DNA from: a virus | Taxonomy: Duplodnaviria > Caudoviricetes | DNA length: 64,000 bases | Strand: one strand, 5' to 3' | Virus record (IMG/VR): IMGVR_UViG_3300013830_000007 | Location: 24,323 to 88,322 of that record | In this document: one piece after another, positions 45,274 to 59,369 of the stretch | Layout of the letters: each line of letters starts with the position of its first letter | Position numbering within the stretch: position 1 is the stretch's first letter | Notes under the pieces: model-generated | Told to the model about the DNA's origin: nothing | What the model saw: the letters and a program-made list of their open reading frames with translations, nothing else | Database searches by the model: none | Translations under genes and position numbers: made by a program

Positions 45274-46896
45274 ATGGCTAATATTACATTTACAGCTAAG
45301 GAGACCGCTGCTCCCGAGCCTACTCCTGAGACTGCTCAGACAGCAGCTCCTAATCCTGCACCTGAGGTTAAGAAACCTGAACCTAAGGAAGAGGTTAAAG
45401 CTAAAGAGATTCCGGTAGATGATTCTGCTTTTGAGGATAATTCTTCTCCTAAGCAGGATGCGGAATTTGATATTTCTGAAGTTAATGATTATAAAGAGAG
45501 CGTCGCTAATGATGATGCTGAAGTATCAGGCTGGGATAAGTTTGGTTTGTGCGTTCCTCTGAGTGATGCAGAGAAAACTGTTCAGCATTACGAGCAGATC
45601 AAAACCAGTCTTGGAAGTGATGCTACCAAAGCACTGAGTGATGTAAACTCTGATATCAATACCGTTATGGAAGCATCCAGAGCTATCACTTCTGCATCAC
45701 TTCTTCTCAAGGAGGCACTTGAAAGAGTAGCTCATATTGATAAGCTGAAGGATAATCAGACTGGTCATGGTTTTACTAAGGCTAATTTAGGTAAGCATTA
45801 TCAGGATATTGATTCTAAGGTTGTATCCGGAGATGAGGCTTTAAGAGTATTCACTACTATCACTGGTGGACTTCGTAAGGTTACTCTTTGGAATTCTGGA
45901 TTCAGTATTAACATTAAGAATATGTCTCTTGATGCTCTGAGCTCTTTCCTTAAAGAGATGCATAAGAGTGATTACGAGTACGGTAAGGAGTACGGCGGAT
46001 TCTATTATCTGTTCGCTGATCTCAGTATCACTGAGTATATTATTGATAAGCTTCTTCCTCTGGTAATTACCGGAAGTAACTATGCCGACTATAAGGATAT
46101 TTCCAAGCTCAGGAAGGCTATTTCGTTCCAGGATTATCCGGTAATTCTCTGGGCATTAGCTTCGATGATGTATCCTGATGGTACTAATATCAGATATGTA
46201 TGTTCTGAGCCTGATTGTCATCACATTGAGTCTGCCCGTATTGATCTCGAGAAGCTTCGTCTCAATAACGAGGATCTGATCAATGAGGATATGCGGACTT
46301 TCATGGCTGATCACGTTAAGACTAAGGTAACCGATGAGGATCTCGTTAAGTATCGCGAACTCTGCAAGCTTGAGAAGGATGTTGAGTTTGAGTATGGTGA
46401 TATCGAAGAGACCAAGAAGAAGTGGAAGGTAACTCTTAAGCAGTGCTCACTTCAGGAGTATATGGATCTTGGCAATGAGTTTAATGAAGAGCTTATTTCC
46501 AGGGCAAGTGCAACTTCCCGTGAAGAGGTAGCTCAGTTCATTGCTTATAACCAGATGAAGACTCTGCTTCCTTGGATTAAGTCTATGACTCTTACTACTA
46601 ATGTTAAGGGTAAGGCTAAGACTTTCACTGTAGAGAATAATGAGCTCAATAAGGAAACTATCAATGCAATGCTCGATGAGTTTATGATGAATAAACCTGA
46701 GTTCTCTGATATGGTCAAGAATTATATTCTCGATACCAAGATCAGTCATATCGCATTCTACTATCCTAAGTGCCCTAAGTGCGGTAAGGCTCCGTATAAC
46801 AGTATCGGCGGATTTATCCCGTATGATCCTATGCAGAATTTTTTTATCCTCGGTCTAACCAGGCTTCTACGGGCAACATCGAAACAAAACAGCTAG
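45274..46896 (+). CDS. Zinc-binding putative tail/baseplate assembly chaperone
   Basis: CSEPDC and CPKC motifs as in baseplate-hub assembly proteins; slippery site near the 3' end. Confidence 0.5.
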   Translation: MANITFTAKETAAPEPTPETAQTAAPNPAPEVKKPEPKEEVKAKEIPVDDSAFEDNSSPKQDAEFDISEVNDYKESVANDDAEVSGWDKFGLCVPLSDAEKTVQHYEQIKTSLGSDATKALSDVNSDINTVMEASRAITSASLLLKEALERVAHIDKLKDNQTGHGFTKANLGKHYQDIDSKVVSGDEALRVFTTITGGLRKVTLWNSGFSINIKNMSLDALSSFLKEMHKSDYEYGKEYGGFYYLFADLSITEYIIDKLLPLVITGSNYADYKDISKLRKAISFQDYPVILWALASMMYPDGTNIRYVCSEPDCHHIESARIDLEKLRLNNEDLINEDMRTFMADHVKTKVTDEDLVKYRELCKLEKDVEFEYGDIEETKKKWKVTLKQCSLQEYMDLGNEFNEELISRASATSREEVAQFIAYNQMKTLLPWIKSMTLTTNVKGKAKTFTVENNELNKETINAMLDEFMMNKPEFSDMVKNYILDTKISHIAFYYPKCPKCGKAPYNSIGGFIPYDPMQNFFILGLTRLLRATSKQNS

Positions 46897-47309
46897 AGCA
46901 ATACTTTAAAGAATTTGTAGTATTTGCCGCGAAGATCCAAAATGAGTCGCGGCATATCGCGACTCATTGGCTTATTCGCAGATTTAATACCAGATTTTTT
47001 AACAGAGAATATTATAATTCTCATACTCCCAATCCATTCAATCTTGACTATGAAGAAAATATGGAGTATAAGGATGAGCTGTTTGAAGATGTTATAACCT
47101 TTTGTATGGACTGCGAGGTGCCTAAACTGTTAGGATTAACGCCCGTAGATATCATGAGAAATTTTGATCTTCCTTCTTATAACGTTCTTAAAGATATCGT
47201 GATTAAACGCAATCAGGAACGCTATAAACATCTCAGTGCCGTTCAGGATAAACTTGAGAAGAGACAGGAAGAGATACTTAACAATGCTAAAGGAAAAAGA
47301 GATGAGTGA
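46827..47309 (+). CDS. Frameshift-extension frame (T-like part); the track ORF 47061-47309 is only its 3' half
   Basis: Frame open from 46827 with no ATG/GTG/TTG until 47061; entered by a -1 slip at 46839-46845; LLGLTPVDIM resembles tail-chaperone T-part motifs. Confidence 0.55.
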   Translation, partial: SYAEFFYPRSNQASTGNIETKQLEQYFKEFVVFAAKIQNESRHIATHWLIRRFNTRFFNREYYNSHTPNPFNLDYEENMEYKDELFEDVITFCMDCEVPKLLGLTPVDIMRNFDLPSYNVLKDIVIKRNQERYKHLSAVQDKLEKRQEEILNNAKGKRDE

Positions 47310-49278
47310 AGCTCCTGAAATAGATCCGAGCATGCGTGCTGTGATAAACACCAATTTCGATACCAGTAATATTGTATCGATGGAGAAATCATTACCGCAA
47401 ATTCAGAATACTCTCAGAAGGTGTCAGTCTATTCTGAAAGACCATTGCGGTCCTCAAGCCGGATACGCAATGCTGGTTAACAATATGTCAGGTGGTATCA
47501 ATTTTGAACCGAATGTTTTTACCAGGGATGGTATTAAGATTCTCAGTTCAATTGAGTTTTTATCACCGTTAGAAAGATATGTTAAAGATCTTTTAACTTA
47601 TGTAGGAACAAGAGTTGATAATAATGCCAAGGATGGCACTACAACCTCAATGCTTTTTTCCTCATTATTCCTGGATAAAGTATTGGGTTCTACTAAGAAA
47701 TTACAGGATCTTAATCTGTCATTTTTCCAGATGAACAGATGCATAGAACGTACATTCAATACTATCCTACAGGATATAGAGAAATATACGTATTCTATTG
47801 AAAAGATAGTCGGTAAACCCGAGAATGAAATCACTGAAAATGAGAAAGTAAGAACAGCTGGGTTGATAGCTTTTATGCAGGCGTTATCATCTTCAGGTGG
47901 TAATGTTGAATTAGCTATAGCAATGAAAGAGATTTTCGAAAAATCTCCTTCAGTATCCTGGGAGTTTATCACTTCGCATAATTCGATTAAAGAAACTGGA
48001 AAATCATTTGAAGTTGAGACTGCTCCTTATGATACTCACTTCAAGTGTATCACCAGTCAGGCAAATGTTCTTAATGCTGCGTTAAGTACCGAATACGAAG
48101 ATGAGAATGTAACCTGCTTAATCATTTCAAGTGTCTTGAGTGCTGGAAGTTTCAAGACTACTCAGGTACTTGAGTGGATCAAGAATTTTGATACTAATAA
48201 ACCGTTAGCTATTTTTGCTCAGTTTATTGATGCATCGTTCCAATCTGAGTTAGCTAAAATCAATCAGCTGAGAAATAAGTTTATTTCTCTCTGGTGCTAT
48301 AGCGCTGAAACCAGAGTAGCAAGTATGAATTACCCTTATGAGTTAATGATTGCTGCTGCTATCGCTGGTGCAGAGCCTTTTGATATGGATAATAACTCAG
48401 ATGTAATTACTGATAAGCATATCTTTGTAGCCAAGAAACTTCATTGGCATGATAGCTTTATGGATTTCTACGGAATAGTACACACTGTCGATGACAGTAA
48501 CTTACATCCGTTCTATGCGAATCCTTCTACTGCTACTCAGTTCTACAAAGATACCAGAGAAGCTATTGAGAAACAGTTATCTTTGTATAAGAATGGTCAT
48601 AAGCCTGATGGAAGAATGTGTGGTCTGTTTATGGAGATGCTGAATAAATTAGCATGTATTCATAGACCTACTCTCAGATTAGGCGGACCTGTTCATGAGC
48701 AGTTAGCTAATAATGATGTTGTTCAGGATGTTCAGGGTGCGATTATGTCATCGCTTAAGCATGGATTCTTAATCAATGGCCCGTTAGCGATGTATCATGC
48801 ATTCTGTTCTACCTATACAAAATTTCAGAAGTTAGCTCGTGAAGCTACCGGTATTACCAGGAATATGTATATTTTCTCAACTATCATTCTTAGTGATATG
48901 TGCGATTCAGTAAGTGAGATTCTTAAAACAGTATATTCACTTCCTGACATCAGCTATGAGAAAATTATTCCTGATGAACTGTGTAAGAAGATGATGGATA
49001 ATAGTGATATCTATAGAAATGTACTTGACGCTAAGGCAAGAAGTTTTAAAGATTTTATCACTATGCTGAAGAGTATTAAAGAAATCTCCAATGATTCTGA
49101 AGAAGGTTTAGAGTTAGGTGTAACTTATCCAGTACTTCAGCCATTAGCTATTACTACTGAGTTACTTAAGCGTGTTCAGGAACTTTTAATGAAGTTCATT
49201 AACACTAATAAGATCGTAGTATATGGTGGTGTGGTAGTCAATAAGGAAAACACAGATGTCAATTCAAAAGATAAGTGA
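47236..49278 (+). CDS. Divergent chaperonin (GroEL/TCP-1 family); probable start at ATG 47302
   Basis: CGPQAG, FTRDGIKIL, KDGTTTS (GDGTTT), LRLGG...VVQDVQGAIMSSLKHG (IKVGA...VEDALHATRAAVEEG). Confidence 0.75.
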   Translation: MPFRINLRRDRKRYLTMLKEKEMSEAPEIDPSMRAVINTNFDTSNIVSMEKSLPQIQNTLRRCQSILKDHCGPQAGYAMLVNNMSGGINFEPNVFTRDGIKILSSIEFLSPLERYVKDLLTYVGTRVDNNAKDGTTTSMLFSSLFLDKVLGSTKKLQDLNLSFFQMNRCIERTFNTILQDIEKYTYSIEKIVGKPENEITENEKVRTAGLIAFMQALSSSGGNVELAIAMKEIFEKSPSVSWEFITSHNSIKETGKSFEVETAPYDTHFKCITSQANVLNAALSTEYEDENVTCLIISSVLSAGSFKTTQVLEWIKNFDTNKPLAIFAQFIDASFQSELAKINQLRNKFISLWCYSAETRVASMNYPYELMIAAAIAGAEPFDMDNNSDVITDKHIFVAKKLHWHDSFMDFYGIVHTVDDSNLHPFYANPSTATQFYKDTREAIEKQLSLYKNGHKPDGRMCGLFMEMLNKLACIHRPTLRLGGPVHEQLANNDVVQDVQGAIMSSLKHGFLINGPLAMYHAFCSTYTKFQKLAREATGITRNMYIFSTIILSDMCDSVSEILKTVYSLPDISYEKIIPDELCKKMMDNSDIYRNVLDAKARSFKDFITMLKSIKEISNDSEEGLELGVTYPVLQPLAITTELLKRVQELLMKFINTNKIVVYGGVVVNKENTDVNSKDK

Positions 49279-57626: not shown

Positions 57627-59369
57627 TTATTGACGAAATTTTAATTTATCACTGAGATAGAAGAGTTTATTGTTGGTCATATCATCAAGATTATCTTCCA
57701 GTAACTTAAGGTCACCGTCAAGATTTCCGTTATTGACGTAATCAAACCATTTAGCCGGATTTGTCAAAGAAGTTACTAAATTAAAGAAAACCTGACCAGG
57801 TTTAGTATCTATGAGACGTTTTGCTTTTTCTGCTTCTGCTTCAGTCTGTTTGACATTTTGCATCCAATCGTTTATATCTTCCCGTGAGACATTTTCATCG
57901 TGTTTGAAGAAGGCATACGTGTCTTGAGCAAGACGAATCAAGCGTCTGTATTCGTTTTCATATAAAGGACTATCGCAAAACCAAGTCAGACGCATAACTC
58001 TCTCTATGTTGAGACATATAGTCATTAATGCCTGAACTAATTTGCTTTCTTTTAAGCGTATAGAACCAAAAAAGAATGGATTTTGAATAGTCCACGCATA
58101 CTGACCAATACGATGGAGCTTATTTAGACAACTTGCGTGATATGATGCATATCCTTGTCTGGCCACAAATTCATCAGCCCATCTCTCAATAACTGTTTTT
58201 CTATTTCTATTAGCGCCTACGTCACTTATTTTTCTACCATCACCATTCCGATTGCCAACCATTCGATTTTTAACTTCGGTTAATATCATTCTTGTTGTAA
58301 GTGACTGAATAATCCAACATATCGTTTCTATGCATCTCGTTGTGCATATAACAACAATCATATAAATGTGATCGTAAAGCATAGATGTAAGTCTTGCTGC
58401 AAGTCGCAGAATATCTGCAAAAAAATTAGTGCCAGATTCTGCTCCTTCATCTCTGTTGATATTTCGTATAGCTGTACTGATCGTATCTAATTTTTCAGTT
58501 AACATATTTTTTGTGGTGCTATCCATATCAGCAGTATTTTTAAGTTCTTCTTTAGTTCCCTGTACTAATGTTTTATCTATTGAAGATAATAACTTTTTAT
58601 AATCGCTTTCAGTTAATTTTTCAGTTTGTACTTTTGTACAAAAAGTATCGATTCTTGATTTCATAAAATACAGATCTCCGCAATGCTCAAATATCGTCAT
58701 TGCGTGACCTATTTCGTGCATTATAAGTCCTGCTAATTCCGGAGCAGTAATTGGTTCTGCTACATCTGCAGATACAAAATCATCTGATAAAAATGCCGCA
58801 TTTATATCAAAGCGTAAACGTACATAGAGCGGTCTTTTACTTTTTCCGAATACTCGACTTTTTAGTCTTGACTTTGATTTATCCACAACATCAGATATTG
58901 ACATTATATCTTTTATGTATTCATCAGTTTGACCTGATCTAATTATTTTTGCTAAAGGAATATTCATAAATGAAGATACTCTAATCTGATATGATCTATC
59001 TCCGGATATTCTAGCAAGTGTTTCCCATAATGTTTCTATATCCATATCAGTTATACGAATATCTAATCCAAATGTTCCTCTTAAGCCGCATAAATCGCCA
59101 TAGTAACATTTGGTATCTCGTATATCTAAATTACAGCATTCTAATACAGCTTTTCTAAAACGAGGAATGGTCTTGTGAATAAAATAATCAGCGACGGCAC
59201 TGATACGATATTTTCTTCGGTCTTCATCTATGTTAGGAATTTTAGAGTAGTCTAATTTTTCTTTATAATCGAATACGTCTTGAAATACAGCAGTAAGTGT
59301 TTTTCCCAATTTAGAGTCGACTTGGAAATCGATAGCCTCATTTCCTATTACGGCATCATAATTAAACAT
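57627..59369 (-). CDS. Virion zinc metallopeptidase-like protein, paralog of 55917-57608
   Basis: IMHEIGH, ERWADEF, EAIDFQ, and the same C-terminal NKLFYLSDKLK. Confidence 0.7.
   Translation of the reverse strand: MFNYDAVIGNEAIDFQVDSKLGKTLTAVFQDVFDYKEKLDYSKIPNIDEDRRKYRISAVADYFIHKTIPRFRKAVLECCNLDIRDTKCYYGDLCGLRGTFGLDIRITDMDIETLWETLARISGDRSYQIRVSSFMNIPLAKIIRSGQTDEYIKDIMSISDVVDKSKSRLKSRVFGKSKRPLYVRLRFDINAAFLSDDFVSADVAEPITAPELAGLIMHEIGHAMTIFEHCGDLYFMKSRIDTFCTKVQTEKLTESDYKKLLSSIDKTLVQGTKEELKNTADMDSTTKNMLTEKLDTISTAIRNINRDEGAESGTNFFADILRLAARLTSMLYDHIYMIVVICTTRCIETICWIIQSLTTRMILTEVKNRMVGNRNGDGRKISDVGANRNRKTVIERWADEFVARQGYASYHASCLNKLHRIGQYAWTIQNPFFFGSIRLKESKLVQALMTICLNIERVMRLTWFCDSPLYENEYRRLIRLAQDTYAFFKHDENVSREDINDWMQNVKQTEAEAEKAKRLIDTKPGQVFFNLVTSLTNPAKWFDYVNNGNLDGDLKLLEDNLDDMTNNKLFYLSDKLKFRQ

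Follow-up and report, generated by a model that had tools for sequence, protein, structure and literature searches.

A probable programmed -1 ribosomal frameshift in a core gene of nucleus-forming jumbo phages

Programmed -1 ribosomal frameshifting is a well-known kind of device, and the lambda gpG/gpGT, phage P2 E/E+E' and Escherichia coli dnaX pairs are the described systems with which we compare the locus analysed here. A conserved frameshift in the tail assembly chaperones of long-tailed phages was reportedly described by Xu, Hendrix and Duda in 2004 (Mol Cell 16:11). In the contractile-tailed phage P2, the E and E+E' products rely on the slippery sequence T TTT TTG, which is not known to need an elaborate stimulator. 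The gamma and tau products of dnaX depend on A AAA AAG together with an upstream Shine-Dalgarno (SD)-like element and a downstream hairpin, the shifted product being the shorter one. Stimulatory RNA structures 5-9 nucleotides (nt) downstream, or SD-like elements upstream, are frequent at -1 frameshift sites without being obligatory. Our locus lies in a 64,000-nt stretch of DNA, hereafter the window, which was taken from a virus record of 88 kb in IMG/VR (IMGVR_UViG_3300013830_000007) and has 37% GC and a gene content of jumbo-phage type. A gene encoding a protein of 540 amino acids (aa) carries there, close to its 3' end, a run of seven T's (T7) from which a second frame remains open. From comparative sequence evidence we propose, with a probability of roughly 0.7, that a programmed -1 ribosomal frameshift takes place at this run and gives rise to products of 540 and 678 aa, in a manner analogous to G/GT.

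The 3' part of the upstream gene (45274..46896, plus strand, as are all features of the locus) reads ATG CAG AAT TTT TTT ATC. The heptamer T TTT TTT (46839..46845) is in X XXY YYZ phase, and the codons AAT TTT TTT specify N522, F523 and F524. Downstream of the heptamer, a dual-coding overlap (46846..46896) is read in the 0 frame as ILGLTRLLRATSKQNS up to a TAG stop (46894-46896) and in the -1 frame as YPRSNQASTGNIETKQL. The -1 frame opens at 46827, four codons 5' of the run, immediately after a TGA built by conserved Tyr-Asp codons, and stays open as far as a TGA at 47307-47309. Its part beyond the slip site, 154 codons and a stop (46845..47309), would encode an all-helical domain homologous to "separate" small genes of phiKZ-like phages, and the predicted fusion is 678 aa long (524 + 154), residues 1-524 being common to both forms. 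The first ATG, GTG or TTG of the -1 frame is an ATG (47061..47063), at codon 79 of this open reading frame (ORF); it has no SD and falls inside the conserved domain. The heptamer, the span of the -1 frame (46827-47309), the ATG and the length of the fusion were all as given in an earlier note made from the letters of this DNA. The abundance of T7 in the AT-rich window is at chance level (33 matches vs 34.8 expected) and only two T7 lie inside a gene on the sense strand; the significance of the heptamer thus comes from its conservation in relatives and not from the window count. The other sense-strand T7 (58419-58425, minus strand) reads AAT TTT TTT at residues 314-316 of the 580 encoded by gene 57627-59369. 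Recoding at this second site was rejected, the -1 frame being open there for only 51 low-quality codons.

In the mechanism that we propose, ribosomes translating the gene would reach AAU UUU UUU with tRNA-Phe on the UUU codons, and a fraction of them would slip back by one base on U UUU UUU and then read 154 codons in the -1 frame before terminating at the TGA. The 540-aa form would end in a short conserved helix (..FFILGLTRLLRATSKQNS), and in the 678-aa form this short tail would be replaced by the conserved all-helical domain. Because the domain has neither a start codon nor a ribosome-binding site (RBS) of its own, frameshifting would be its only route of expression in this phage. We infer that the slipping agent is the ribosome rather than RNA polymerase, as we do the frequency of slipping. 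If the protein has the role in hub or tail assembly that is suggested below, a fixed ratio of short to long form would matter as it does for lambda gpG/gpGT.

The locus resembles lambda gpG/gpGT in that the -1 shift would occur close to where a presumed morphogenesis gene ends, the shorter and the longer product would begin with the same N-terminal portion, the extension is without its own start, and the layout is kept across very divergent phages whose sequences are not. Unlike gpG (about 100-150 aa), however, the upstream protein is roughly four times larger (540 aa), and the gene does not lie between the tail-tube and tape-measure genes. Neither part matched a Pfam family at an expect value (E) of 0.01, tail-assembly-chaperone families included; the fold comparison with the HK97 chaperone 2ob9 was at noise level (Z 3.6), and the extension had one match to a Microbacterium-phage chaperone at E 2.4. 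The earlier suggestion of a G/GT-like pair thus stands for the logic of the device and not for homology or gene position, and membership of the G/GT family is not supported. Like the E/E+E' pair of P2, a pair of tail-assembly genes of a myovirus, the locus has a heptamer of the X XXY YYZ type that is rich in U; the protein families and sizes are different, P2 E being a small chaperone encoded next to the tape-measure gene. As in dnaX, a -1 frameshift on a homopolymeric heptamer would set the ratio of two products of one gene, although no stimulators were detected here and the shifted product is the longer one. The kind of device is not new; what appears new is the phage group in which it occurs, the family and the size of the upstream protein, and where the gene is placed. 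We found no report of a frameshift in this gene in the full-text literature or in recent reviews of nucleus-forming phages, subscription journals being largely outside that search.

We compared 29 lineages, 8 metagenomic and 21 cultured, with GC contents of 34% to 59%, drawn from a protein index, from ENA, Logan and JGI contigs and from GenBank phages. The cultured phages were phiKZ, 201phi2-1, Psa21, DT01, FBKp24, Moabite, PhiEaH1, PCH45, SPN3US, Wellington, Asesino, Xoo-sp14, FLC9, RSF1, SA002, Ea35-70, Eowyn, Vibrio phage Yong XC32, Aeromonas phage D3, Halocynthia phage JM-2012 and Bacillus phage AgentSmith. Megablast against phages found no close relatives, and scans of IMG/VR with either protein or with the alignment found no relatives. 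The homologous site was T TTT TTT in 18 lineages, T TTT TTC in eight, T TTT TTA in one and G or A followed by TTT TTT in two. The X XXY YYZ phase was exact in 27 of the 29, with a free last position (T, C or A), as a ribosomal site predicts. In every lineage the downstream small gene was in -1 phase and the -1 frame was unbroken from the run to the stop of that gene, so that the conservation of the U-run and of the frame overlap in orthologous gene pairs, which the earlier note had singled out for examination, extends to the whole set. In the 20 lineages that were tabulated, the -1 frame spanned 151-178 codons and the +1 frame closed within 3-75 codons of the run. None of the deposited annotations consulted for the locus marked slippage or a joined coding sequence.

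The codons at the site point in the same direction. The first Phe codon was always TTT, and the preceding codon ended in T in 17 of 19 lineages. In the rest of the same gene, TTC was at least as frequent as TTT in 15 of these 19 (TTT:TTC of 0:14 in Xoo-sp14, 1:16 in DT01 and 2:11 in FLC9). A naive joint probability for this codon choice is 1e-16, a value that is overstated, the lineages being related. Since TTT was retained against the preference of the gene for TTC, we consider that the nucleotides, and not only the amino acids, are under selection. In the Gram-positive jumbo phage vB_BspM_AgentSmith, the run was kept as T TTT TTA (L032:2273-2279) with residues V-F-L instead of x-F-F, and the annotated small gene starts 94 codons after it.

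Among close relatives, the orthologues of L004-L008 and L012 were about 70-80% identical to the proteins of the window, and L010 and L011 were about 99% identical over the locus; all of them have the gene order upstream gene, small ORF and GroEL-like chaperonin. In the DNA alignment of these relatives, the T7 was invariant, the 0-frame stop was at the same place and the -1 frame was open from the run in all sequences. Conservation over about 50 nt after the run was far above that of the flanks and included a 22-nt block invariant across four lineages. Nei-Gojobori counts between the window and L012, L004 and L005 gave, for the 0 frame of the gene body, proportions of synonymous (pS) and non-synonymous (pN) differences of 0.44-0.87 and 0.08-0.14, respectively. 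In the overlap (46846-46893), 0-frame pS was 0.14-0.29, i.e., synonymous change was suppressed 2-4 fold, and the 0-frame tail is, judging from these counts, under a second constraint there. In the start-less stretch that follows (46896-47006), the -1 frame had a pS of 0.70-1.09 and a pN of 0.19-0.28, with a ratio of about 0.25, and pN exceeded pS (pN/pS above 1) in the 0 and +1 frames. The low ratio in the -1 frame suggests that this frame is translated upstream of any start codon.

The start codons available to the downstream frame were poor and variable. At ATG 47061 the anti-SD duplex energy was -1.0 kcal/mol, against a median of -5.95 kcal/mol for the first-ATG starts of the long ORFs of the window (83% at or below -4; background median -0.5), which bears out the earlier remark that this ATG lacks a good RBS. 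The remaining candidate starts in the start-less stretch had energies of +0.7 to -2.2 kcal/mol, and conserved -1-frame residues reach about 60 codons upstream of ATG 47061. Across lineages, the first ATG, GTG or TTG after the run was 11-90 codons downstream, mostly without SD, and the annotated starts of the downstream gene were scattered (ATG, GTG, TTG and, in Erwinia phage Ea35-70, L030, CTG). No canonical start preceded the conserved residues in the window, L012, L013, L014, L015, phiKZ or PhiEaH1. The gene-caller start of L004 and L005, a GTG located 20 nt after the 0-frame stop, is not conserved, since the same position is GTA in the window and ATA in L012. In phiKZ, the 218-nt "intergenic gap" before PHIKZ076.4 (L017:3404-3621) was open in the -1 frame and had there motifs in common with 201phi2-1, Psa21, Xoo-sp14 and DT01; the deposited phiKZ annotation thus misses about 90 codons. 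The pre-start segments of the first 20 lineages totalled about 900 codons with zero stops, for which we estimate a chance probability of about 1e-20, assuming about 5% of stops per random codon. The N-termini of 74 called homologues of the -1 ORF mapped to profile positions from about -11 to 78, a raggedness expected if there is no true start. Run, phase, open frame, codon usage, selection and the lack of a conserved start or RBS thus all support by comparison the -1 frameshift first proposed for this locus.

Several observations weigh against this reading. The 70 nt after the run folded at -5.7 kcal/mol, no better than shuffled sequence (z +0.83), so that the weak hairpin previously placed at about 46848 did not hold up. 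No common downstream structure was found in the 18 lineages in which one was sought, and inspection by eye revealed no SD-like element upstream of the run. In FLC9 (G TTT TTT) and Psa21 (A TTT TTT), six T's are retained but the site departs from strict X XXY YYZ, which fits single-tRNA slippage and polymerase slippage equally. The in-frame fusion was not found among 1.84 billion representative proteins, the 74 profile matches being all of 71-164 aa, nor in a word search for longer proteins, whose silence is weak evidence. Finally, a decent SD-preceded start is located before the conserved domain in FBKp24 (ATG, -7.7 kcal/mol), Moabite (ATG, -5.9) and L016 (GTG, -5.9), where separate expression may coexist with frameshifting. 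A search of Rfam matched no family. Some lineages had a hairpin 3-8 nt after the run, among them Psa21 (z -3.3), L016 and DT01 (both z -1.8).

The same fusion would be obtained by transcriptional slippage if the phage or host RNA polymerase added one U on the T6-T7 run, giving an edited mRNA. A run of at least six T's is indeed the only feature common to the 29 lineages, two of them are outside X XXY YYZ, no stimulatory RNA structure is conserved, and transcription in these phages is by multisubunit polymerases of their own, which are non-canonical and whose slippage behaviour is not known to have been characterised. We nevertheless regard transcriptional slippage as unlikely, because a polymerase would hardly slip efficiently on 6-7 residues, the well-studied bacterial cases having runs of about 9, and because it would favour longer runs in any phase, whereas the phase was exact in 27 of 29 lineages and T8 was present only in RSF1, Ea35-70 and JM-2012. 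The downstream frame could otherwise be a separate gene, with translation beginning at a weak or non-canonical codon such as ATA, ATC or GTA, or with ribosomes reinitiating after the 0-frame stop, and with the T-run reflecting nothing more than conserved Phe-Phe codons. Gene callers and annotators list a separate gene everywhere, some lineages have an SD-preceded ATG or GTG before the conserved core, and even T4 gp26 has FF conserved at the protein level. Such independent initiation is, however, also unlikely in our view: in the window, L012-L015, phiKZ and PhiEaH1 it would have to do without a canonical start before the conserved residues, the candidate starts have no SD in a phage where nearly all genes have one, and it leaves unexplained the use of TTT against codon bias, the run kept at FL, the constant -1 phase and the suppressed synonymous change in the 0-frame tail ahead of its stop.

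Homopolymers are error-prone, and one homologue (P0035) apparently has a run one T shorter; T7 could thus be a length error for a true T8, with a single 678-aa ORF, or the small frame could be a dying gene with a lost start. The first possibility meets the agreement of L010 and L011, two independent metagenome contigs with the same T7, the same 540-aa reading and 0-frame tail of P0006, a 97%-identical orthologue, and the two-frame layout of 29 out of 29 lineages, finished genomes included. As independent assemblies agree and the 0-frame tail is conserved, sequencing error is excluded, and the homopolymer-length error at 46839-46845, named in the earlier note as a possible refutation, could be ruled out. 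As for decay, the 0-frame tail is conserved down to 25% identity, no single-ORF form was present in the databases searched, and the downstream frame is under purifying selection and insertion-free in phiKZ transposon-insertion sequencing (TnSeq). Artefact and decay are thus effectively refuted, and a programmed ribosomal frameshift is the reading that we retain.

P0035 is a 524-aa homologue on a 3.6-kb Logan contig and ends in ..MSQAFLP, as would result from a run one T shorter; such a run would stem from a homopolymer error or else from a natural variation in length at the slip site.

The 540-aa protein matched phrog_4585 (E 2.7e-51, residues 16-536), and tblastn with it matched 124 jumbo-phage records, PHIKZ077 being found at E 4e-15. 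Roughly 230 records in GenBank contain a homologue of gp77. Its family comprised 36 homologue clusters of 519-641 aa, with identities down to 25%, and included phiKZ gp77, 201phi2-1 gp136, SPN3US gp39 and FBKp24 gp029 among cultured phages. The phiKZ orthologue gp077 is the core gene cg18 of Chimalliviridae, one of about 70 core genes of nucleus-forming jumbo phages, listed as "hypothetical protein" (PMC10299810 supplement). In a phiKZ TnSeq data set, PHIKZ077 (1602 bp) and PHIKZ076.4 (243 bp) both had 0 insertions, and the neighbouring 076 to 076.3, four small genes, tolerated insertions (10.1101/2025.11.23.690004, Supplemental Table 2). Four cysteines (C310, C315, C500 and C503) were invariant in the family, and a C-terminal motif [YH]D-x(3)-FF-x-L showed little or no variation. 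The residues following FF in the 0-frame tail, L-G/A-L-x-K-L-L-R, were conserved throughout, down to 25% identity, which argues that the short product is real.

The AlphaFold (AF2) model of the 540-aa protein had a predicted local distance difference test score (pLDDT) of 78 and a predicted template modelling score (pTM) of 0.79. The FF site sits in its final helix (519-539), so that, according to the model, the frameshift would remove the greater part of this helix and put a helical domain of 154 residues in its place. Among solved structures there was no significant sequence match, no Foldseek match to the PDB with E below 0.2 and no VIA Z above 3.8; this lack of a structure match does not show a new fold. 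In BFVD, Foldseek ranked jumbo-phage orthologues first, followed by at least 12 models of proteins of 220-290 aa named as subunits, assembly proteins or assembly chaperones of the baseplate hub (E 3e-4 to 2e-2), the gp26-like matches having probabilities of 0.96-1.0 and a target-normalised TM score of about 0.5. Since its modelled fold resembles that of T4 gp26, we consider the protein a probable assembly factor of the baseplate hub or tail that is not part of the virion. The "Zn-binding assembly protein" of the earlier note is thus sustained in part, by the four invariant cysteines and by the gp26-like BFVD matches.

T4 gp26 has been proposed to be a chaperone or cofactor of hub assembly (PMC9024508). 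Like this family, it has a C-terminal Zn-ribbon signature, CPxCG, followed after about 10-15 residues by FF-x-L (ending in ..CPECGKTHAHVIRGLKEFFELL), and one gene gives two products. An hhalign comparison of the CPxCG region with gp26 gave E 0.0019 and a probability of 15%. Gp26 itself belongs to PF12322 (8.8e-64) and phrog_150; PF12322 was absent from the window protein and found in 1 of 31 family members, at E 0.0098, and phrog_150 was not matched. As the sequence models do not join the two families, we consider the 540-aa protein a distant structural relative of gp26 and not a member of its family. There are also clear differences, since gp26 has only 208 aa and its second product, 26', comes from an internal in-frame start and not from a frameshift. 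The codons of its FF are TTC TTT, and a stop closes the -1 frame immediately afterwards; the device is thus absent from T4. Gene 25, downstream of gene 26, is in -1 phase with a one-base overlap TAATG (L027:3801-3805), but a TGA four codons upstream closes the -1 frame, and gp25 and the extension at our locus are unrelated proteins. BFVD also contained weak matches in Leptospira phage LE4, a non-jumbo myophage, where A0A343LED6 matched the 540-aa protein at E 1.2e-2 and A0A343LED7 the extension at E 2.2. These consecutive accessions are possibly neighbouring genes, and the two-gene module may thus predate jumbo phages.

The AlphaFold model of the extension was all helical (pLDDT 90) with a 44-residue C-terminal helix, the start-less part being also predicted as folded helix (pLDDT about 90). 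BLASTP of the extension against the small genes of cultured phages gave no match, and profile-profile comparison was needed: hhalign of the window-clade extension with the -1 ORFs of cultured phages gave a probability of 86% (E 5e-6), the homologues including PHIKZ076.4 and 201phi2-1 gp135. The best Foldseek matches in BFVD were weak (E 0.09-4), several of them being small uncharacterised proteins of RP12, Eowyn, Psa21, PA7 and Phabio. Solved structures offered no significant match in sequence or fold to the extension, only its long C-terminal helix resembling coiled coils (Z 5.9).

Taken more broadly, and here we see a reasonable likelihood on the basis of the sequence comparisons, the site would be an ancient, family-wide recoding in cg18 of nucleus-forming jumbo phages and their relatives, including a Bacillus phage. 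It would provide a hub-assembly factor resembling gp26 with a longer form that is essential, and be the long-missing functional counterpart of G/GT for phages with T4-type baseplates, with hundreds of genomes mis-annotated as having a small hypothetical gene or a gap. A conserved recoding site would give this hypothetical core gene a second, larger product and a stoichiometric mechanism, and its link to gp26 makes it likely that the gene acts in the assembly of the baseplate or tail. If true, the rule that a -1 shift supplies long-tailed phages with two assembly proteins would extend to a new phage group and protein family, and many records would be corrected, among them the "gap" of 218 nt in phiKZ, the starts given as CTG or TTG and the "hypothetical proteins" of 67-160 aa. 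Knock-outs, knock-downs and tagging at the locus would, in that case, have treated one gene as two.

The perfect 11-bp hairpin described in the earlier note (46941..46968), inside the -1 ORF, was confirmed; it has a 6-nt loop and is unique in the window. It is also present in L010, L011 and L012 (arms intact, loop changed) and not in L004 or L005. Its proposed role as frameshift stimulator was rejected, as it is 96 nt 3' of the slip site and restricted to the closest relatives. An independent contig of 609 nt (L009) ends exactly at this hairpin, with 28 nt of unrelated sequence. The corresponding entry (P0003/L009) had looked like a variant of 99% identity in which the small frame possesses an ATG, but it is uninformative, since the 28 nt with which it begins are unrelated sequence at a contig end that lies in the hairpin.

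The neighbours of the frameshift pair are two genes of unknown function and a chaperonin in the window, and, in phiKZ, gp78, gp79 and the RNA-polymerase subunit gp80 on one side and the helicase gp75 on the other. The chaperonin gene (47302..49278) encodes a divergent GroEL-like protein with a DGTTT motif (phrog_5725, E 1.3e-11; PF00118, E 2.7e-6, below the gathering score). It lies directly 3' of the pair in the metagenomic clade (window, L004, L005, L013-L016) and not in cultured phiKZ-like phages, and the same holds for an SH3DP-domain gene that likewise follows the pair. The ATG of the chaperonin gene overlaps the stop of the -1 ORF (ATGAGTGA), which suggests a translational coupling of the chaperonin to the shifted frame.

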